Of a stretch of DNA of 64,000 bases, positions 19,019 to 46,401 are shown piece after piece. The notes below the pieces were generated by a model that saw nothing but the letters and a program-made list of their open reading frames with translations, searched no databases and was not told the origin of the DNA. Made by a program: the position numbers and the translations under genes. Position 1 is the first letter of the stretch, and each line of letters begins with the position of its first letter. Origin of the DNA: a virus; IMG/VR virus record IMGVR_UViG_3300042259_000159; one strand, written 5' to 3'.

Positions 19019-19249
19019 CTACGTGATCGAGGCAGAGCACCTGTGGTCGAGGTAGAACACCTTGCCAATGCAGAAGGTATGCCCTTCCTTCATAATGCGG
19101 AATGTTGCTTGCATGGGCACATTTACCTCCACTACCCACTGGATGCCTTGTTCAGGCCAGAAACTCAAGCTGCCGTTAAACTCAAAAGGCTTTGCTTCAC
19201 AACCCTTCACAGCGGTATTTATCTCTTCCATACCATCTTCACCAGTCAT
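19019..19249 (-). CDS. hypothetical protein
   Basis: ATGA overlap with the methyltransferase stop. Confidence 0.4.
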   Translation of the reverse strand: MTGEDGMEEINTAVKGCEAKPFEFNGSLSFWPEQGIQWVVEVNVPMQATFRIMKEGHTFCIGKVFYLDHRCSASIT

Positions 19250-20100
19250 GACTCCACGGAATCAAGCAAACTTGGCTGCTTATTTCTACGGCTAATAGCC
19301 TCGGCGTCTAGCCGCTTAGCGATTATCTCGCAGTACTTTTCTTCGCGCTCTATCAGGATCCAGCGGCGGCTAGCACGCTCGGCTGCAACTGCTGTTGTGC
19401 CGCTGCCCGCGCAGAAATCAAGCACTGTTTCACCTTCGTTGGTGTAGGTTTTGATGAGGTATTCCATTAGGGCAACAGGTTTTTGGGTTGGATGGAGTGC
19501 TTCAGAGTCTTGGCTAAATTTAATAACACCGCGAGGGTAGTTTGTAAATTCTTGTTTATAGCTTTCAGATTTGGTCAGATCATTATGTACACTTGTCCTA
19601 TCCCCATTCTCTTTTAGAGAATCCTTCCGTGTCTTTGTCCCCGTGTTTTTTACCACCTTGTCCACCTTTACAAGCCCCTGCGCGTTATAAGTTGGCTGCT
19701 TGCGGTAGAATACAAGCACGTCCTCAAATCCTTTTAGCGGCATCCTTTTGGCATTGGGGAAATTTGTTGGACGACCTTTCTCCCAGACCCATGTGTATTT
19801 AAGCATTTTGAGATTACTAGCCCCCAAAAGACTTGTAAACGGCTGGCTAGCAGTCATAACAACAGCCCCACTAGGCTTGATAGCCCGCTTCAACTGCTCC
19901 CACATTGGCTCTAGCGGAATAATGCTATCCCACTTACACGCCGTCATTCCAATTCAGCCGTAGGGTGGATCGCATAACACCAGGTCTATAGAGCCGTCTG
20001 GGATATATTTCATAACCTCAAGACAATCTCCATGAACCAACGTGTTAGGCAATACGCACCCTACGTGCTGTATCTCCTTTTCGTTAGTTATAGTAAACAT
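19246..20100 (-). pseudogene. DNA methyltransferase (N6A/N4C type) interrupted by a single in-frame TGA after the DPPY motif
   Basis: Minus-strand reading ...LVLCDPPYG-TGA-IGMTACKWD...; C-terminal FCAGSGTTAVAAE motif I; start overlaps the HNH stop (TAATG). Confidence 0.65.
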
Positions 20101-20642
20101 TAAATAAAATACTCCTGTATGTTTAGTTTCAAATTATTCCAATCTGTTTGTGTCATATCATTTTTGCACCTATTTTCAAACCACGACAAAAACTGCAAGT
20201 TTTCTATGTCATTAGTTCCTCCTTTTGCTTTTGGTGTTATGTGGTCTATTGATGGCTTTTTGTATTTTTCTTTACCGCCGCTAACCCATCTTTCATAAAT
20301 CCTATTAAATTGATCGTCATAGTAAAACCTACTTATATAACTTTTGTACCATTCAGTTGATATGTCCCATCTGCCTGAACGATTCGTAATTACATCATTT
20401 AACAGCTTTAATTTATCAAAATCCTTAAACTGCATTAACCAATCAGTCGTTACGTCAAACCTCAAGTGTGTTGCCATGTTGTTATAATTGCGCTCAATAT
20501 CACAATTAAATTTTTTAACACCTCTTAGATTCTTGGGCTTTCTGGTCTGTACCCCATTTCTCTTCAGGATTCTTGATATTAGTTTGTGATTAGTACCTAG
20601 CTTATCCGCTATAGAGCGCATTGAATCGCCACTTTTGTACAA
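20100..20642 (-). CDS. HNH homing endonuclease with N-terminal HTH
   Basis: SIDHITPKAKGGTNDIENLQFLSWFENRCKND. Confidence 0.7.
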   Translation of the reverse strand: MYKSGDSMRSIADKLGTNHKLISRILKRNGVQTRKPKNLRGVKKFNCDIERNYNNMATHLRFDVTTDWLMQFKDFDKLKLLNDVITNRSGRWDISTEWYKSYISRFYYDDQFNRIYERWVSGGKEKYKKPSIDHITPKAKGGTNDIENLQFLSWFENRCKNDMTQTDWNNLKLNIQEYFI

Positions 20643-20647
20643 TTCAA

Positions 20648-21049
20648 CTAATGGATAAATAGGTAATCCCCAATCTCCTCGGGGCGTTTAGCATTTTTTA
20701 CCTGCTCATTATAAGGAAGAACCAAGAGTTCACCAACAGCATCCCTTTTGGATACAGGCAGTTTTTCTTCCAGCCGTTTTTGCATAGACTCGGAGTCCAT
20801 TCCCATCAACAGCTCAAAAATCTCCAAATCTTTTAGACGATTATCGGTGGCAGGTAGAAGCGATCCAAGTATACAGGCTTTATTGAGTATCAGGGGTTTG
20901 CGCCCTTTCCAGTAACTGCCAAGAGCGGTCAATGTTTTGCTCTGAACAGCGCTCTGTTCTTTAAAACTTTCAGCGGATATTTTTTGCACTGGAAAGAGAT
21001 GTTCAATCAGTGCCGGTTTATCTTTCCATTCGAACGGTTTCAGTGCCAT
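20648..21049 (-). CDS. hypothetical protein
   Basis: Start MALKPFEW overlaps the upstream stop (TGATG). Confidence 0.4.
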   Translation of the reverse strand: MALKPFEWKDKPALIEHLFPVQKISAESFKEQSAVQSKTLTALGSYWKGRKPLILNKACILGSLLPATDNRLKDLEIFELLMGMDSESMQKRLEEKLPVSKRDAVGELLVLPYNEQVKNAKRPEEIGDYLFIH

Positions 21050-21423: not shown

Positions 21424-22248
21424 TTAGATGATTGCTTTATTCTCATGTGCACTCTCAATGCGCCGCTTGGCAATGTTGAAATAGCCTTGGTCTAGCTCAA
21501 TACCGATAAAGCAGCGGTTCAGCAGCTTGGCCATCTTGCCAGTCGTACCGCTGCCCATGAAGGGGTCGAAAATCGTATCGCCTTCGTTTGACCAGCTTGA
21601 TATATGTCTTTGCGCTAATTTTTCAGGAAAAATTGCAGGGTGCTTAAACGCCTCACTATCCATTGTTGAGTGACCTTTACCTGTCGTTATGTACCATATA
21701 TTTCCATCTATCTTATCTAATCCAACTGGTTTCCTTTTCTTGCCACTTCTGGCACTGCGCATTTTTTCAGTTGTAGATGAAAAATAACTGTTCTGACGTG
21801 AAGTTTCTTTTTCCGGATATTTTGTCGGAACTCGAATGGCGTTAAAGGTTTTAGGTCTACCCTTACTAAAAACAAACATATACTCAAAATCTTGTTCGTA
21901 TCTGTTGTGGTTTTTCGGTAGTGCGTTTTTATGGTATATCATCGTATCATGCAGCCGGAAGCCGCACTCCATAGCCCACAATGCTTGCTTAAAGCTAGTA
22001 CCTGTCTCACTACCCTTAATCGTGGCGTCACCAACAACCCAAACAACAACCCCACCATCTTTAGTAACACGGTATAGGTCTTTAATAACCGCCTTCCAAA
22101 CATGCTCTCCCCACAACGCATTATTGCCGTTATAAGTGCGCAGATTATCGTATGGTGGGCTTGTTACCGTTAAATCAACAATACCATCAGGTATTTCTTT
22201 CATCCGCTCAAGGCAATCGCCTAGCATCAGCTTAATCATCATCACCAC
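21424..22248 (-). CDS. DNA methyltransferase (beta-class N6-adenine/N4-cytosine)
   Basis: Motif IV SPPYD near the N-terminus, motif I DPFMGSGTTG near the C-terminus. Confidence 0.8.
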   Translation of the reverse strand: MVMMIKLMLGDCLERMKEIPDGIVDLTVTSPPYDNLRTYNGNNALWGEHVWKAVIKDLYRVTKDGGVVVWVVGDATIKGSETGTSFKQALWAMECGFRLHDTMIYHKNALPKNHNRYEQDFEYMFVFSKGRPKTFNAIRVPTKYPEKETSRQNSYFSSTTEKMRSARSGKKRKPVGLDKIDGNIWYITTGKGHSTMDSEAFKHPAIFPEKLAQRHISSWSNEGDTIFDPFMGSGTTGKMAKLLNRCFIGIELDQGYFNIAKRRIESAHENKAII

Positions 22249-33953: not shown

Positions 33954-34037
33954 TGGTAGGAGAAGAGAGATTCGAACTCTCAAGGAATAATCCGTCGAGG
34001 CTTAAACTCGATGTGTTTACCATTTCACCATTCTCCC
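33954..34037 (-). tRNA. tRNA-Leu (anticodon UAA), type II, CCA encoded
   Basis: Manual fold: acceptor GGGAGAA/TTCTCCT, anticodon loop TTTAAGC, long variable arm, T-loop TTCGAAT. Confidence 0.65.
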
Positions 34038-34045
34038 GTATTTTT

Positions 34046-34067
34046 TATCTACCATTCCGCCATTCCC
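34046..34067 (-). other. orphan tRNA 5' fragment (Leu-like acceptor + D-arm)
   Basis: GCGGGAATGGCGGAATGGTAGA with no matching 3' half. Confidence 0.4.
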
Positions 34068-34076
34068 GCATTTATT

Positions 34077-34153
34077 TGGTACCCACTGTGAGATTCGAAC
34101 CCACACTAATCAGTTTCTAAGACTGATGCCTCTGCCAAGTTGGGCTATACCAG
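34077..34153 (-). tRNA. tRNA-like gene (class I, anticodon UAG) with mismatched acceptor stem; probably chimeric or disrupted
   Basis: D-arm, anticodon arm TCAGT-CTTAGAA-ACTGA and T-arm fold, but 5' ACTGGTA does not pair with 3' AGTGGGT. Confidence 0.4.
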
Positions 34154-34184
34154 TATTATGCTTATTATTTTATTTTGAAAGGCC

Positions 34185-34235
34185 ATATGTATACACATAT
34201 ATATATATACATATATATATGTATAGAGCAACCAA
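34185..34235. repeat. TA-rich microsatellite
   Basis: atatgtatacacatatatatatatacatatatatatgtatag. Confidence 0.8.
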
Positions 34236-34412
34236 AATGGTTAAATAAAAAGGTGTTTTGTGGAGACACCAAACTCCTCCAGTTTTAGTGATCTGGAAAC
34301 AATAAGCGGCGCAGGTGCTCTTTAAAACACGTGCTACCAAGCGTATAAATTGTCTAGGGGATTTCACCAAACACATTATGTTATTGGAGGGATCTTTCCC
34401 TAGACTCAGTAA

Positions 34413-34485
34413 AGCTCCTGACAGGACTTGAACCCGCAACCGGCTGATTACAAATCAGCTGCTCTGCCAGTTGAGCTACAGGAGC
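34413..34485 (-). tRNA. tRNA-Thr (anticodon UGU), CCA not encoded
   Basis: Manual fold: acceptor GCTCCTG/CAGGAGC, D-arm GCTC..GAGC, anticodon loop TTTGTAA. Confidence 0.7.
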
Positions 34486-34489
34486 AGAA

Positions 34490-34561
34490 CAGAGGGAGAA
34501 GGATTCGAACCTTCGAATGACGGGACCAAAACCCGTTGCCTTACCGCTTGGCTACCCCTCT
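34490..34561 (-). tRNA. tRNA-Gln (anticodon UUG), CCA not encoded
   Basis: Manual fold: acceptor AGAGGGG/TCCCTCT, anticodon stem ACGGG/CCCGT, loop TTTTGGT. Confidence 0.65.
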
Positions 34562-34569
34562 AAATTTTT

Positions 34570-34646
34570 TGGCTCCGGCGGCAGGATTTGAACCTACATT
34601 CGCAATGGTTAACAGCCATTTGCCTTACCAATTCGGCGACACCGGA
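34570..34646 (-). tRNA. tRNA-Asn (anticodon GUU), CCA encoded
   Basis: Manual fold: acceptor TCCGGTG/CGCCGGA, anticodon stem AATGG/CCATT, loop CTGTTAA. Confidence 0.65.
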
Positions 34647-34691
34647 ATGAACTTTTTATTTGTTATCAGCATTGTTTTGCTTTATTTTAAA

Positions 34692-34770
34692 TGGTCTCGG
34701 TGATTAGATTTGAACTAATGATTATTCCTGCTCCCAAAGCAGGTGCCATACCAAGCTAGGCGACACCGAG
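34692..34770 (-). tRNA. tRNA-Pro (anticodon UGG), CCA encoded
   Basis: Manual fold: acceptor CTCGGTG/CACCGAG perfect, anticodon stem CCTGC/GCAGG, loop TTTGGGA. Confidence 0.6.
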
Positions 34771-36853: not shown

Positions 36854-36940
36854 TGGTGCCCAATGCAGGACTCGAACCTGCACGCCATTTCAGGCAGGAG
36901 GGCTTAAACCTCGTGTGTCTACCAATTCCACCAATCGGGC
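36854..36940 (-). tRNA. tRNA-Leu (anticodon UAA), type II, CCA encoded
   Basis: Manual fold: acceptor GCCCGAT/ATTGGGC, anticodon loop TTTAAGC, long variable arm. Confidence 0.6.
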
Positions 36941-36949
36941 TAAAATCTT

Positions 36950-37033
36950 TGGTGCCTCAGACAGGATTCGAACCTGCACGGATCTCTCCACTTGGTCCTA
37001 AGCCAAGCGTGTCTGCCATTCCACCACTGAGGC
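36950..37033 (-). tRNA. tRNA-Leu (anticodon UAG), type II, CCA encoded
   Basis: Manual fold: acceptor GCCTCAG/CTGAGGC perfect, anticodon stem CTTGG/CCAAG, loop CTTAGGA. Confidence 0.65.
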
Positions 37034-39544: not shown

Positions 39545-40254
39545 TTAGATAGTAAACAGTTTTTCAACACCTTTCTTGCTTCCCGTGTTCTTTGTCAGGC
39601 TGCTTACAATTTCTTTTTTCCAAATGCAAGTAAAATCTTCTGGAGCATTATATTCTGAAACAAACACCTTATGTCCCTCATTAGCCTTATCTCTGCACCA
39701 CTGCCAAAACAACTCATGGTCAAAATCATTAGAGTACTTTGTTGTCCCTGAATAGGGCGGATCACAGTAGATTAAGCTGTTACTGGGGATATGTAGCTCA
39801 TCATAAGGACAACACAAAAATTCTACATTTTGAATTAGCGAGGACTGTTTTATTGCTGATTGCTTACTACGTTTTGTTTGTATTATCATGTTTTCAATAT
39901 CACCTTTTGTTCCTGCTTTGTCCCGCCTATACCCCCCAAAAAATTTACCACCAAAAGACATTGAAAATGCTGTAAATCCAGTTAAACCATCAATATTTTT
40001 GTGTTTTTTCATTGAATTGTACATATCTTCTGTAATAATTTCAGGAATACTTTTTGGTGCATCGCGTATAAGTTTTAATGCTTCTATTACATACGGGCTG
40101 CAATGGCGGCCCCAATACGATTCCCATCAACCTTATCAATCATGTTTCCACCTCCAACAAACGGTTCAACCCACCACTGGTCAGGTTTTCTTTCTGCAAG
40201 CATAATTGGGAGGATATACTTTGCTATTCTGTTTTTACTTCCCATGTATTTCAT
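39545..40254 (-). pseudogene. dam: Dam-like DNA adenine methyltransferase, frameshifted
   Basis: N-terminal part (MKYMGSKNRIA...EPFVGGG) ends at TAA 40091-40093; C-terminal part with IYCDPPY continues in another frame; frames overlap over a CCC run. Confidence 0.65.
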
Positions 40255-40329
40255 ACTTACCTCCTGTTTTTGTTTTAGTTGTAAGGTGCTTTTACCTGTC
40301 AATATCAAACTACCCCTATTCCCCCTGTT

Positions 40330-40470
40330 TGTCAATACCTTATTCTTATCTAAACATAAGATATATATATTATATATATATTCTTTATATAATATAAATA
40401 TATATACTTTATATATAGTATATTTATATAATATATATATGTATATAATATATATACTCCTACTCACTAC
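40330..40470. repeat. TA-rich low-complexity repeat upstream of dam
   Basis: atatatattatatatatattctttatataatataaatatatatac... Confidence 0.8.
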
Positions 40471-40652: not shown

Positions 40653-40847
40653 ATGGAGGAAAATATGATATACACATACAGGTGTTCAATCTGCAACAAG
40701 CTTTTTACCTCGCACGAGGATGTATACGATGTATACTTAGAAAGCTTTGTTTGTCCTGAATGTCTGCGTGAGGGAAATATCTCCGCTGTCTATGGCGAGG
40801 ATTTCTTAGATTCGCTGGACATGTTCGACAACCCAGAAGATCTTTAA
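40653..40847 (+). CDS. small zinc-ribbon protein
   Basis: CSIC...CPEC; GGAGGA RBS. Confidence 0.45.
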   Translation: MEENMIYTYRCSICNKLFTSHEDVYDVYLESFVCPECLREGNISAVYGEDFLDSLDMFDNPEDL

Positions 40848-40882: not shown

Positions 40883-40910
40883 TTGACAAATGGTTAAAAG
40901 TGTGTTATAA
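40883..40910 (+). promoter_or_regulatory. sigma70-like promoter (TTGACA-N16-TATAAT), candidate late/packaging promoter
   Basis: acTTGACAaatggttaaaagtgtgtTATAAT. Confidence 0.5.
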
Positions 40911-41050
40911 TAGGTTTTGAATTAATAATTAAAAATGATAATGAATTTCATTGTCTTTTGTAATCTTCTAAGATGTCTTAGATAGGCATCCGAAAAGTAT
41001 AGGGGAGTTTCCCTCCTTTTCTCCCCTATAAAATATTAACAGGAGGTAAT

Positions 41051-41438: not shown

Positions 41439-41922
41439 AGATAACTGCCCTGTACACAGGAAACTGTGTATGTGTATCTCATTAAAACGGGGAACCCTAA
41501 GTGTACACGCATAAGGGAATCCCGTGACTACGCAAGCCGAAAAAGGAGTAGGCATGAAAAATTTAGGATTTATGGGTTTTGATAAGTGTGCGGATATGTT
41601 CTGACCTAGAGAAGGGTTTTTCATGCTCTTCTACTGTAAGGAGGAATAAGGTTGGAACAAGCACGGTACATAGGATCTATAGAAGAAAAACGCATACTTC
41701 CATATCTAAGAATTTTTCTTGGGAGTAGTTGTAACGACTAGTTCATAAGAACGTAAGACACAAGTAGTCCTTAAGTGCAAGGACAAGGTGTTTGAAACAT
41801 GAGACACTCTAACAAGTAATGTTGAGGGTGAAGAGATAGTCTGAACTGTATAGAAATATACAGCAGGAGAACATTTTAATGTTTTTCCGGCAGATGCCTT
41901 ACGAACATCTGTGAACATTTTG
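41439..41922 (+). other. group I intron 1 in terL (no ORF)
   Basis: R-like gtaacgactagtt at 41731 and S-like gaagagatagtctgaact at 41830; ends in G; boundaries +/-3 nt. Confidence 0.6.
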
Positions 41923-42199
41923 GGTGCCGCAGGTTCGGGAAAGTCATACATAATGAATATGATACCTTTGAGGTATGTCGATTGCCCCAACTTTAGGGGG
42001 ATTGTCTTCCGAAGGGAAACGACACAGCTTACAGGTGAAGGGGGGATGTGGGATACAGCAACGGAGATATACTCTGAGCTGCCTAAAAATATCAGGCCCA
42101 AAATATTGAAACATAACCTGAGAATGATTTTTCCGAATGGGGCAAAAATTAAGTTTTCACACATGGAAAATGATAATGATTTCAGGAAACATCAAGGGT
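41923..42199 (+). CDS. terL: terminase large subunit, exon 2 (Walker A)
   Basis: GAAGSGKSY ... FSHMENDNDFRKHQG. Confidence 0.65.
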
Positions 42200-42453
42200 T
42201 AATTAGTAGCCCCTTGTGTTGGTGACAGCGCAAGCAAACTAACCTAATTCGGTGGAAGCCCAAACATGTAGGATGTGGGTGATACCGAGCAAGCCACGGC
42301 GTGTGTAACGACTAGTTCTTAGGAACGTAGGCCCAAGCGGGTCGAAACGGTTAGCATCTTATTAAGATGAAGATATAGTCTACTCTGCATGGAAACATGC
42401 AGCGGACACTTTATGTGTCGGGCAGATGTTAGCGCCATCTGTTGAATATTATG
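42200..42453 (+). other. group I intron 2 in terL
   Basis: R gtgtgtaacgactagttcttagg at 42301; S gaagatatagtctactctgcatggaaacatgcag at 42369. Confidence 0.6.
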
Positions 42454-42562
42454 TACAATATACCCTGATATGCTTTGATGAGGCAACACATTTCACTTTC
42501 CAACAAGTTGAATACTTAATGTCACGTATGAGAAGTAAAAGTAAGTATGCTTCTCGTATGGT
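42454..42562 (+). CDS. terL: terminase large subunit, exon 3 (Walker B)
   Basis: QYTLICFDEATHFTFQQVEYLMSRMRSKSKYASRM. Confidence 0.6.
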
Positions 42563-42846
42563 TCTGTCGTGGATTACGCGACATGTATGGCGAAAGCTGT
42601 ACTGGCAACTGTGTGAACTCAGGGAAACCTTAGCTGCTGCAATTGGGCAGAGGAAGAAGGCAATCCTGAGCGAAGCCTTCCCACCGGGAAGGAACGTGCA
42701 ACGACCATCGAAAGCGTAACACCTGTTACAGTGAGTAGAGTACACCACACATGTGTGGTGGAAGCGCACAGCCCCTAACATGTAACGATGAGGGTGAAGA
42801 TATGGTCTGAACCTACAGAAATGTAGAAAAAGGTAAACAAATACAG
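42563..42846 (+). other. group I intron 3 in terL
   Basis: Shared 48-bp motif caatcctgagcgaagccttcccaccgggaaggaacgtgcaacgaccatc; S-like gaagatatggtctgaacc at 42796. Confidence 0.55.
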
Positions 42847-43162
42847 GATAATCGGTAACCCAGATCCTGATAGTTGGCTTTTGCCTATGGTAGAGTGGTA
42901 CTTAGATGAACAAGGATACCCCGACCAGTCTAAAGATGGGGTTGTAAGATGGTTCATTAGAAAGAATGGTGAGTTTATCTGGAGGGATACAGAAGAAGAA
43001 ATCTATAGAGATTTTGGAACAGGCCCGTCTATACGCCCTGTATCCTTTACATTCATCTCTGCAAATATCTATGATAACCCTATTATGATAGAGACCAATC
43101 CAGACTATCTTGCAATGCTTGAAGGCCTCAACGAGGTTGATAAGGCAAGATTACTACGCGGT
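42847..43162 (+). CDS. terL: terminase large subunit, exon 4
   Basis: IIGNPDPDSWLLPMVEWYLDEQGYPD...; the NP motif is only in frame once intron 3 is removed. Confidence 0.6.
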
Positions 43163-43444
43163 TAACAGTGGCCGCATATAGTAGTGATATTATATGAAAA
43201 ATTGTGTGAATTCAGGGGACACCTAAACAGGCAACGCTTTGTGCTGTAGGCAATCCTGAGCGAAGCCTTCCCACCGGGAAGGAACGTGCAACGACCATCC
43301 TGAGTAGGAGTAGGGCCAAGCGGTTCCGAAGCGCACAACATCTCATTGAGATGATGATATGGTCTGATCTATATGGAAACATATAGCTGACACGGTGTAT
43401 ATTACGTGTCGGGCACGTCTTAGCGAGACGTGCTGAACAAAATG
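43163..43444 (+). other. group I intron 4 in terL
   Basis: Same 48-bp motif at 43250; S-like gatgatatggtctgatctatatggaaacatatag at 43371; 3' end ...ctgaacaaaatg. Confidence 0.55.
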
Positions 43445-44178: not shown

Positions 44179-44885
44179 GTGGTAAAAGAGGGCAGCAAGT
44201 CTGCTACAAAAACAACCACTTCTAAGAAATTCAACCTATCTGAAAAAGGGTATATAGGACTTAATCAGGTAAATGGCCGCATTTATGAGGAAAGTCGTGA
44301 TGCTTTAAGGTTCCCTAATGCGACAAAGACCTTTAAAAAGATGTCCTATGACCCTGTAATATCCGCTGCAAATTCCACAATAGATCTTATGATAGGTCGT
44401 GTGCAGTGGTTCTTCGATGTTCCTGATACAGCCAGTGATAAGGCAAAAGAAGCAGCAGAATTTTTAAATTACTGTATGAACAGCATGGATATGGGAACAT
44501 GGGAAGATTTCATTACTGAGTGTGGTAGCTATAGACGTTACGGCTTTCACATAGCGGAAAAAGTCTACAACAAGGTTAAAGAAGGGAAGTGGAAGGGAAA
44601 GTATAAGTGGAAAAAACTACCAACAAGAGCACAAGACACCATTGAAGAGTGGGTCTTTAGTAAGGATAACAGGGAGCTTTTAGGCTTAAAACAGTCAACA
44701 AGAAATGTGACACACCCACTGGCATTAAAGAGCCTTACAGGCTATATAGAAATACCAAGGTCAAAATTCATACATTTTGCCTACGATGGGTATAGAGATA
44801 ACCCAGAGGGAAGAAGCCCGTTAGTTGGTGCCTACATCCCTTGGACATATAAAACACTCATAGAGGAATATGAGGCTGTCGGCGT
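44179..44885 (+). CDS. portal protein, exon 1
   Basis: GTG start 6 nt after AAGGAGG; portal-sized product after splicing. Confidence 0.55.
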
Positions 44886-45826
44886 TAATTATAGCGCCTT
44901 TATGTATTGATACATAAAGCAAACTCCCTTAATTCAGGGGAAGCCCTAACGTTGAGACGAGGGTAATCCTGAGCGAAGCCTTCCCAACGGGAAGGAACGT
45001 GCAACGACTAATAAGTCAAATAAACAACACATTAGTGTATGGAGAGTATTTTATGAAAACTTCAAAAGAAATTAGGAACCTTGTCATTGCTATGCTGTTT
45101 GGAGACGGCACATTGAATGCTAAAGGTTATTTGAGCATGCGTCACTGCATAGCGCAAAAAGACTATATAGATTGGAAACGAAAACTTCTAGTAAGTGGTA
45201 TATCTATGACTGACTGTTATTATGTTAGTAATAACGGGTATGGTGCATATGAAGTTAGAAGTAGAGTTTACAAATTTATGAAGCAATATCGTAAGGTAAT
45301 TTATGGTAGTGGTAGAAAAAACATTACAGACCGTAGAATCCTGAATAAGCTCACGCCGCTTGGTTTATCCATATGGTATATGGATGATGGCGGGTTATCT
45401 CAGAAGAAAAACAAGGATGGTGAAGTAGTAGCAAACGAGCTGATACTTAACACATATCTTAGTAGAGAAGACAACCAGAAGATTATTGATTACTTCAATG
45501 AAGTTTGGGGTATAAGATTTACTCAGGTAAAGAATAGAGGTCTTTATCGTCTCCGTTGCGGTACAGCGGAGGCTAGGAAATTTATAGAAATCGTAAAGCC
45601 ATATGTCTCCCAAGTACCGAGTATGGCACACAAAATGAAGTTAAAAGTAAAATAGTCTGACTATCGAACACACGTAATTTTTACGGAAGTTAGTAGAGTA
45701 GAACCAAGTGGTTCGAAACGGGGAGGTTCTTAGAAATAAGAACATGATATAGTCTGGTCTGCATGGAGACATGCAGGAGTTCATAAGAGAACCGGAGAAG
45801 ATTAACGACCTTTTCTGAACACAACG
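44886..45826 (+). other. group I intron in portal gene carrying a LAGLIDADG homing endonuclease ORF
   Basis: 48-bp shared motif at 44960; S element gatatagtctggtctgcatggagacatgcagg at 45746; 3' end ...ctgaacacaacg. Confidence 0.6.
44999..45655 (+). CDS. LAGLIDADG homing endonuclease (intron-encoded)
   Basis: LVIAMLFGDGTL and LSIWYMDDGG motifs; probable start at ATG 45053. Confidence 0.7.
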   Translation: MQRLISQINNTLVYGEYFMKTSKEIRNLVIAMLFGDGTLNAKGYLSMRHCIAQKDYIDWKRKLLVSGISMTDCYYVSNNGYGAYEVRSRVYKFMKQYRKVIYGSGRKNITDRRILNKLTPLGLSIWYMDDGGLSQKKNKDGEVVANELILNTYLSREDNQKIIDYFNEVWGIRFTQVKNRGLYRLRCGTAEARKFIEIVKPYVSQVPSMAHKMKLKVK

Positions 45827-46070
45827 AGCTAAAGACCTTGGGGGTATTCCTCTTATAGGTGTGGATGTTGATTACCTTGCTAAAGCACAGGAGAACCCTG
45901 CATCAGCAGAAGCCGCTGTTGTAGAGGCACTGAAGCGTGATGCAGCAAATATGCATTCAGGTGATCAATCCTACATGCTCCTTCCTCTTGCTTACACACA
46001 GGATGGGGGGAAACCACTCTTTGATTTTAAACTTGTTGGAGTGGACGGTGGTTTGCAAATAAGCCACGGT
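45827..46070 (+). CDS. portal protein, exon 2
   Basis: In-frame continuation (V)AKDLGGIPLIGVDVDYLAKAQ...ISHG. Confidence 0.5.
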
Positions 46071-46401
46071 AGATGGAAACATCTATAAAAATAAACCTAT
46101 CTAATTGCTGGGAAGTCTTGTTAGGCTTAATGTACAATACAGAGTGGTGACACTCTGCGATACTGTAAAAATCATTAAGATAGAGATAATCAGCAGCCAA
46201 GCTTAAGCCTCCAGACAGATAAAGGAGGAGGCTTTTGAAGGTTCAACGACTAGTTCTTAGGAACGTAGGCCCAAGCGGGTCCAAACGGTAGGGTTCCTCC
46301 AGTGCGGCTGAGGAATAAGATATAGTCTAGTCTGTATGGAGACATACAGGTGCAGGTAAAGCTGCCGGAAAGGTCTAGCGAGCCTTTTTGAATACTAAAC
46401 G
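46071..46401 (+). other. group I intron 2 in portal gene (no ORF)
   Basis: R ggttcaacgactagttcttaggaacg at 46241; S gaataagatatagtctagtctgtatggagacatacagg at 46313. Confidence 0.6.

Follow-up and report, generated by a model that had tools for sequence, protein, structure and literature searches.

Is the Dam-like methylase gene of this phage broken, switched on and off, or read in some unusual way? The window, by which we mean the whole 64,000 nucleotides of viral DNA analysed here (IMG/VR record IMGVR_UViG_3300042259_000159), carries the gene on its minus strand at 39545-40254, spread over two reading frames. The original prediction held that the frame changes at a run of C and that one extra C would restore a single ORF. 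It added that this gene, together with a second methylase interrupted by TGA, could reflect selection against methylation, phase-variable expression or sequencing error. The two frames of the Dam-like gene are as follows.

40087 to 40254, minus strand: N-terminal ORF of the Dam-like methylase with motif I (EPFVGGG), 55 codons plus TAA, then TAG at 40084-40086
39545 to 40126, minus strand: second frame of the Dam-like methylase, -1 relative to the N-terminal ORF, residues 51-235, stop at 39545-39547

The N-terminal ORF is preceded by a strong ribosome-binding site, AGGAGG (40260-40265). It starts at 40254, reads MKYMGSKNRIAKY...EPFVGGGNMIDKVDGNRIGAAIAARM and ends with TAA at 40087-40089, its full translation being MKYMGSKNRIAKYILPIMLAERKPDQWWVEPFVGGGNMIDKVDGNRIGAAIAARM. 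The second frame translates as ...SPYVIEALKLIRDAPKS...GKFFGGYRRD...LIYCDPPYSGTTKY...EKLFTI and contains motif IV as IYCDPPY, with DPPY starting at 39763. Overlap between the frames is confined to 40126-40087, and the 710 nt from start to stop are not a multiple of 3. It is correct, as had been claimed, that the AdoMet-binding motif I (FxGxG) and the catalytic motif IV (DPPY) are both present and lie in different frames, the first in the ORF 40254-40087 and the other in the frame 40126-39545.

The gene was also rightly assigned to the frameshifted D12-class methylases. Translated as a single ORF with a one-C repair it matches PF02086 MethyltransfD12 in Pfam at 52.7 bits (the cut-off is 22), and with CC deleted it matches phrog_56 'DNA methyltransferase' at E 2.8e-46. 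Profile matches in the PDB are to 7m6b, E. coli Dam (2g1p), DpnM (2dpm) and T4 Dam (1q0s). The gene product resembles the structurally characterised GATC enzymes only remotely (E 1e-4 to 3e-7), and 'Dam' is therefore to be read as 'Dam-like'. A collection of 5.8 billion proteins holds 6519 relatives, the top 120 consisting almost entirely of single proteins of 229-268 aa. Annotated homologues from Vibrio phages are 57-60% identical. A near-DNA search of cultured phages returned no close relative, only Vibrio phage methylase genes that are 72-75% identical. Exact-pattern scans with both dam alleles gave no match in metagenome and genome contigs, and the same UViG alone among viral contigs; no host or prophage copy of either allele was found by these scans. 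The closest intact relative is the 251-aa protein P0001, on contig L005 from JGI sample 3300036466. Across the gene the window DNA is 97% identical to L005, and the CC-deleted protein is 97% identical to P0001; the two-frame arrangement is therefore no chance juxtaposition.

The comparison with orphan phage D12 methylases (T4 Dam, E. coli Dam, DpnM) is instructive. The window gene shares their PF02086 fold family and their motif order, which runs from motif I (FxGxG) through the motif II Asp in (A/G)D-x-N to motif IV (DPPY), and its protein would be about 235 aa, like T4 Dam. What sets the window copy apart is that it occupies two frames and no longer has the codon for the motif-II Asp. It is this loss that leads us to the lesion, which alignment with the intact allele places away from the run of C.

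40105 to 40106, minus strand: the lesion, a 2-nt insertion (CC, coding strand) in the Asp50 codon, placed by DNA alignment with the intact allele L005
40095 to 40097, minus strand: CCC run, the same as in the intact allele, 8-10 nt downstream of the CC insertion

In L005 the gene reads ATT GGG GCC GAC TGC AAC CCG TAT (I G A D C N P Y), and in the window it reads ATT GGG GCC GCC AT TGC AGC CCG TAT. An ancestral GCC GAY TGC has become GCC GCC AT TGC, the insertion sitting inside the Asp codon of the G-A-D-x-N/S-P motif. In the alignment GGGGCCG--ACTGCAACCCG of L005 stands against GGGGCCGCCATTGCAGCCCG of the window, with a 2-nt gap in L005; the site is GCCGCCAT with the inserted CC and GCCGAY without it. 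Asp50 (D50) is invariant in 39 of 39 homologues (62-97% identity) and is one of 49 invariant positions, and every other invariant column of that alignment is kept in the window gene. A profile search of PDB sequences aligns Asp50 with the ILADIN Asp of E. coli Dam (2g1p). In Dam enzymes the ribose of the methyl donor, S-adenosyl-methionine, is held by the motif-II Asp, which is D54 in E. coli Dam and D50 in T4 Dam. The motif-II acidic residue of the D12 class (the Asp of A-D-x-N) is missing from the window allele, its codon being split by CC.

The frameshift is not at a C-run. The run of C is only CCC, which is unchanged relative to L005, and the Asp codon is the lesion site. One extra C at the run does reopen the frame, and the resulting 236-aa ORF still matches Pfam, but it reads GAAIAAPYV and the invariant Asp is absent. 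Deleting CC instead gives GADCSPYV, the ancestral reconstruction. The interval first proposed, 40085-40110, encloses the lesion but put it at the wrong bases. The CC insertion is both a shift of frame and, judging from the homologues, the removal of an essential Asp.

We believe, with a probability of roughly 0.8, that the gene is an orphan D12-class N6-adenine methylase inactivated by a genuine CC insertion, recent and private to its lineage, and that it no longer gives an active enzyme. Translation from the strong ribosome-binding site would end after 55 residues. The remaining ~180 codons have no ribosome-binding site of their own and lack motifs I and II. From what is known of these motifs, no active Dam-like enzyme should be made from the window allele. 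We infer that activity was lost, and lost recently, because no second lesion has accumulated and all the other invariant residues are kept. The window and intact alleles differ by 13 synonymous and 6 non-synonymous codon changes, which indicates that the gene was under purifying selection earlier. The locus does not form the one continuous ORF that characterizes D12-class methylases, and we file it as a PF02086-family pseudogene. A loss of this sort is an ordinary event in a common phage accessory gene. Two points speak against full certainty. A minority intact allele may exist in these populations, and a nearby methylase of this phage seems to be decoded in a non-standard way, which leaves some room for unusual translation in the host-phage system; we return to that gene below.

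The alternative that survives best is that the loss was adaptive: methylation was harmful, for example in a host with methylation-dependent (Type IV or DpnI-like) restriction, and the frameshift was selected. We think this unlikely, although there are arguments for it. The frameshift is the only allele assembled in at least four samples, and it persisted through a recombination event upstream. Among the 16 palindromic tetramers, GATC shows the strongest depletion in the window (112 observed against 212 expected, O/E 0.53), which points to long-term restriction pressure around GATC. However, such depletion would be older than a recent loss, and it is not informative about the specificity of the Dam-like enzyme, whose target need not be GATC. 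A single lesion cannot separate selection from drift. The strongest argument had been that two of the three methyltransferases in the window are disrupted. The genes in question, besides the Dam-like pseudogene, are these.

19246 to 20100, minus strand: second methylase, PF01555 N6_N4_Mtase; a 48-codon ORF ends in DPPYG-TGA (TGA at 19954-19956) and the remainder follows in the same frame
21424 to 22248, minus strand: third methylase, PF01555, TSPPY motif, uninterrupted ORF

The count is literally true, but the second interruption is a conserved feature and not a lesion. Its support for selection against methylation therefore falls away, and with the third gene intact there is no general shedding of methylation. 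Two other methylases remain in the phage, and the loss of the Dam-like gene may have been neutral or selected.

Could the insertion be an error, with the real gene intact? No error of assembly is more frequent than an indel, and the bases around the site (GGGGCCGCC) are rich in G+C. The original prediction had an error at a homopolymer in mind. The change is instead an insertion of 2 nt that leaves homopolymer length unchanged, and assembly errors do not typically take the form of 2 nt inserted away from a long homopolymer. The same CC insertion occurs in four more assemblies, from three JGI samples and one SRA run. L001 (JGI 3300042258) and L002 (3300042267, also IMG/VR UViG L006/L027) match the window at 100% identity. 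L003/L007 (3300042268) and L004 (the Logan assembly of SRR35183615) have the insertion and an identical coding sequence, while their mismatches to the window (31 for L003 and 24 for L004) all fall within ~150 nt upstream of the start codon, in the following stretch.

40255 to 40402, minus strand: 5' untranslated/promoter stretch with TTGACA boxes, to which all differences between the two frameshift haplotypes are confined

The haplotypes differ there by 31 mismatches and 6 gaps in ~150 nt (~20%), and outside that stretch no difference occurs over 3.2 kb. The five frameshift copies come from four libraries, two pipelines and two upstream haplotypes; the JGI samples are numbered consecutively and the SRA runs possibly belong to the same project, so it is the assemblies that are independent and perhaps not the populations. 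Gene callers have also recorded both halves on other contigs, the C-terminal fragment as P0021 and the exact 55-aa N-terminal fragment on L003/L007 and L004. The intact relative has further substitutions at the site (GAC TGC AAC against GCCAT TGC AGC), which means that the two are distinct alleles. Since the identical insertion stands in other assemblies on two haplotypes, an assembly error is very unlikely, and the evidence supports a CC-insertion allele that is real and locally predominant, though not necessarily fixed.

Phase-variable or heterogeneous expression through reversible indels is just as improbable. Phase-variable methylases do exist, for instance the Type III mod 'phasevarions' (see also PMC1557822), and the window gene resembles them in that a methylase frame is switched off by an indel. 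They use long homopolymers or multi-copy tetra- or pentanucleotide repeats, and the Dam-like gene has none. There is no homopolymer of 6 nt or more and no tandem repeat near 40087-40126, where the longest runs are G4, C3 and GCC twice; the longest homopolymers of the gene (A6, T6, G6) lie elsewhere and are in frame. Nor do the assemblies show any length polymorphism. The five frameshift copies are identical in coding sequence and the intact allele differs at 25 other positions, so no ON/OFF pair is seen on one background. The one repeat that could in principle change length lies outside the gene.

40341 to 40458, no strand: TA-rich imperfect tandem repeat (TRF, 76-81% matches), also in L005

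The repeat had been correctly reported. It lies 87-200 nt upstream of the start codon in the orientation of the gene, within a 400-nt divergent intergenic region between the methylase, which is the first of a leftward run of small ORFs, and a rightward 64-aa zinc-ribbon ORF (40653-40847). The same region has consensus-like promoters for the rightward genes. We found no link between the repeat and the frameshift. The idea of phase variation was therefore rejected for lack of a simple-sequence tract at or near the site.

The signals expected of recoding are missing as well. There is no X_XXY_YYZ slippery heptamer anywhere in the N-terminal frame. The 136 nt around and downstream of the overlap show no stimulatory RNA structure (MFE -18.6 kcal/mol against -20.5 +/- 3.4 for shuffles, z = +0.56). 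A family profile found 80 related viral contigs, 79 of which have the gene in a single frame, the one exception being the window's own phage; L078, another of the 80, has an in-frame stop that is unrelated to the window frameshift. In the second frame there is no start codon before 40024 and no Shine-Dalgarno sequence there. That ATG, 27 codons in, would open a 159-aa ORF, and gene callers use the next ATG (155 aa, P0021). The two-frame arrangement is, on the sequences compared, private to the lineage and without the hallmarks of programmed frameshifting or phase variation.

That an active enzyme is still made, by a programmed -1 frameshift or a hop or as two pieces, has hardly any chance of being right: a second methylase of this genome seems to need non-standard decoding, and split methylases can complement each other (PMC3404938), but the shift site has no heptamer, stop, rare codon or structure and is conserved in 1 of 80, any joined product would lack the invariant Asp whose codon the insertion splits, and the C-terminal part has no ribosome-binding site. 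In the herpesvirus thymidine kinase a G-run carries a 'savior indel' with low-level compensatory frameshifting (PMC5009743), and there too a viral enzyme gene has a frameshifting indel. Slippage in that gene needs a run of 7-8 G, whereas the Dam-like gene has no slippery run and an essential codon is destroyed.

A single cause for both interrupted methylases, reassignment of a stop codon, was also considered and rejected. TGA is an ordinary stop elsewhere in the window, where 14 of 76 long ORFs end with it, ATGA stop-start overlaps among them, and the eight tRNA genes include no suppressor. The rest of the genome is that of an uncultivated phage. Structural genes are present, and the major capsid protein shares 30-40% identity with its counterparts in Pseudomonas phage M1, Aeromonas myoviruses and Felix-O1-like phages. 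Between 42190 and 46349 there are five group I introns that reach Rfam significance. The coordinates of two pieces of contig Ga0451648_000250 point to a circularly assembling genome of ~70.19 kb, of which the window is ~91%.

This brings us to the second methylase, a beta-class enzyme. Canonical homologues read DPPYG-TTACKWD, and the window gene reads ...LVLCDPPYG-TGA-ATT-GGA-ATG-ACG-GCG-TGT-AAG-TGG-GAT, which is nine bases more, the stop coming first. Contigs L012 and L013, from unrelated samples, have the same 48-codon ORF with DPPYG and a stop, followed by the rest, and their C-terminal parts are 75-81% identical to that of the window. Pattern scans that left the inserted bases unconstrained found a 9-nt insert in 13 viral and 65 metagenome contigs. 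A further 12 viral contigs came from a scan with variable gap length, and with duplicates removed there are 82 distinct gap-bearing sequences. They come from marine, freshwater, wastewater and compost samples and include gp63/gp64 of the cultured Geobacillus phage vB_GthS_PK3.6. In the viral collection, canonical genes of the family without the gap outnumber those with it, at least 120 against 25.

The gap has a consistent form. All 82 genes have a stop directly after the Gly of DPPYG (TGA in 61, TAG in 15, TAA in 6). After the stop come 0-5 further nt. Immediately ahead of the resumed TTACKWD stands a codon that is GGN in 74 of the 82, NGC in 7 and GTT in 1, counts that come from related and hence not independent sequences; its wobble base is often unlike that of the Gly codon before the stop. 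Between the two Gly-type codons lie 6 bases in 71 cases and 1, 3, 4, 5, 7 or 8 in the others. With gap lengths of 1-8 nt, coding therefore resumes in the 0, +1 or +2 frame. In the out-of-frame variants the downstream ORFs are intact (201-294 aa) and keep the C-terminal AdoMet motif (motif I). Two genes of the same gap type share only 39-58% identity downstream, a sign that the arrangement has been maintained over long divergence. The seven unconstrained codons before the first Met have entropies of 0.80, 0.48 and 1.62 bits at positions 1, 2 and 3, the same signature as in the following 21 codons. Such coding-type entropy after the stop argues that the stretch is translated in that frame. We conclude from these comparisons that the TGA of the second methylase is a conserved feature and evidently no private lesion.

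Some details concern the window copy in particular. It is the only one of 71 with ATG for the first Thr codon after the landing codon, and it may behave unlike the other gap-bearing genes. In the variant contig L010 all 84 differences fall outside the second methylase and hence are uninformative about selection there. No record has the start of the 233-aa C-terminal ORF, which is recorded as a 219-aa call, P0121. A two-piece match in the E. coli phage vB_EcoM_011D4 was set aside, since it is split in mid-gene by a different, ordinary frameshift.

What could carry a ribosome across this gap? We suggest tentatively, and with somewhat less than even confidence, that the widespread gap in these phage methylases is a short hop of peptidyl-tRNA-Gly over the stop, a natural 'stop-hop' that would gate synthesis at a low level. 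The peptidyl-tRNA-Gly would leave the Gly codon of DPPY-Gly, skip the stop and land on the next GGN or NGC codon. Such a hop would regenerate exactly DPPYG-TTACKWD whatever the frame. It would be the only single mechanism to fit all the variants, and it seems to us the most parsimonious. Read-through alone fails for the variants that resume in the +1 and +2 frames. Frameshifting to +1 alone fails for L176 (GGA TAA T TAA GGA), in which the +1 frame has its own TAA. Selenocysteine or pyrrolysine insertion is ruled out by the occurrence of all three stop codons. Separate initiation is unlikely in the 73 in-frame cases because none of them has a start codon in the stretch from the stop to the constrained codons. 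It is possible in a few +1 variants (L173, L174 and Geobacillus PK3.6 gp63/gp64), whose TAT-GGN gives rise to an overlapping ATG.

Synthetic constructs have demonstrated in-frame stop-hopping, but for nature it is stated that 'no occurrences are known' (Atkins et al. 2016, PMC5009743). We found no report of the methylase gap in the literature, of which our coverage was incomplete. Like the synthetic stop-hops and T4 gene 60, the second methylase has a Gly take-off codon with an immediate stop; likewise, a GGN codon stands just before coding resumes, and removing the gap gives DPPYG-TTACKWD. There are differences as well. The gap in the family is 1-8 nt instead of 50, and no conserved stem-loop was found at it (alifold -2.2, column shuffles about -1.0 +/- 1.3). 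The take-off and landing codons are often synonymous and not identical.

We believe the practical lesson of the Dam-like gene is for annotation. It should be labelled a pseudogene, it should not be 'repaired' with one C, and Dam/GATC methylation of the phage DNA should not be assumed. It also shows how a repair made on paper may reopen a frame but sit at the wrong bases. The result for the second methylase removes the premise of a phage that is shedding its methylases. If hopping is the right reading, this phage would have one dead methylase (the Dam-like one), one that is gated and one that is ordinary. The gap would then be the first natural in-frame or short-range stop-hop and a new throttle by which phages restrain a potentially toxic enzyme, and it would be a systematic source of methylase genes mis-annotated as 'split' or 'truncated' in phage genomes.

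A beta-class (PF01555) methylase of this phage carries a conserved coding gap containing a stop, placed immediately 3' of the DPPY-Gly codons, and the same gap recurs at many related loci.

19246-20100, minus strand: the gapped beta-class (PF01555) methylase, with a TGA stop at 19954-19956.
Loci related to it: contigs L012-L026 and L107-L183, and Geobacillus phage PK3.6 (L304) at 574-1351.

In all 82 of the 82 distinct gap-bearing methylase genes the Gly codon is followed by the stop, which may be TGA, TAG or TAA. A GGN or NGC codon lies 1-8 nt beyond the Gly codon, in any frame, with GTT as the single exception. The ORF downstream of the gap is intact and protein-constrained. Judged from sequence, the gap would fit a naturally occurring stop-hop, a short form of translational bypass. 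We found no published account of such a stop-containing methylase gap in the literature searched, the coverage of which was incomplete. The window also encodes eight tRNA genes, which comprise two Leu(taa)+Leu(tag) tandem pairs together with Thr, Gln, Asn and Pro, and none of the eight is a suppressor.

33954-34770 and 36854-37033, minus strand: the eight tRNA genes.

Other phage methylases are interrupted as well. A Dam-like homologue (L078, 1501-2199) has an in-frame stop (LLKAV*NGQE), and in the cultured Krischvirus Escherichia phage vB_EcoM_011D4 (L303; MT478991.1, 87997-88754) a PF01555 methylase is split mid-gene and annotated as two CDSs. These two are ordinary disruptions.

The gapped methylase is preceded by an HNH endonuclease ORF (20100-20642, minus strand; weak PF01844 match); the stop of this ORF and the start of the methylase's 48-codon N-terminal ORF overlap. 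The related phages L012 and L013 have a 5'-3' exonuclease gene at that position. On some phage contigs (L015, L186 and L187) the DPPYG-TTACKWD methylase family is represented by two or three paralogues in tandem. These genes are near-identical to one another in their N- and C-terminal modules but differ in the middle (target-recognition) parts. L015 (IMGVR_UViG_3300005613_002790) has three, of which only the last contains the gap with the stop; the first two are canonical.

GATC is the lowest-represented palindromic tetramer in the whole window (112 observed against 212 expected, O/E 0.53), followed by CCGG (0.68), ACGT (0.69) and GGCC (0.70). The frameshifted Dam-like gene is transcribed divergently from a short zinc-ribbon-like ORF, upstream of which lies a near-consensus promoter, TTGACA-N17-TATAAC. 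A perfect TTGACA-N17-TATAAT at 40883-40911 is found upstream of the ORF that comes next.

40653-40847, plus strand: the 64-aa zinc-ribbon-like ORF, with two CxxC pairs; all Pfam matches are sub-threshold.

Beyond these lies an intron-bearing region that begins at a 104-aa Terminase_6N fragment (41911-42225) and extends into the head genes. Its five group I introns score 51-96 bits, above the Rfam gathering score, all inside 4.2 kb, and have repeated core elements of 33-52 nt in common. Extra copies are possible near 41831 and 45744.

42190-42402, 42559-42828, 43153-43386, 44876-45191 and 46043-46349, plus strand: group I introns (Rfam).

Finally, sister-sample haplotypes that are 100% identical elsewhere contain two short hypervariable patches of about 20% divergence, both of which look like localised recombination mosaics.

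40255-40402: patch 1, the promoter/5'UTR of the Dam-like gene, seen against L003 and L004, other-haplotype assemblies of this phage.
20600-21025: patch 2, inside a 158-aa ORF with a DUF1156 match, seen against the variant contig L010.
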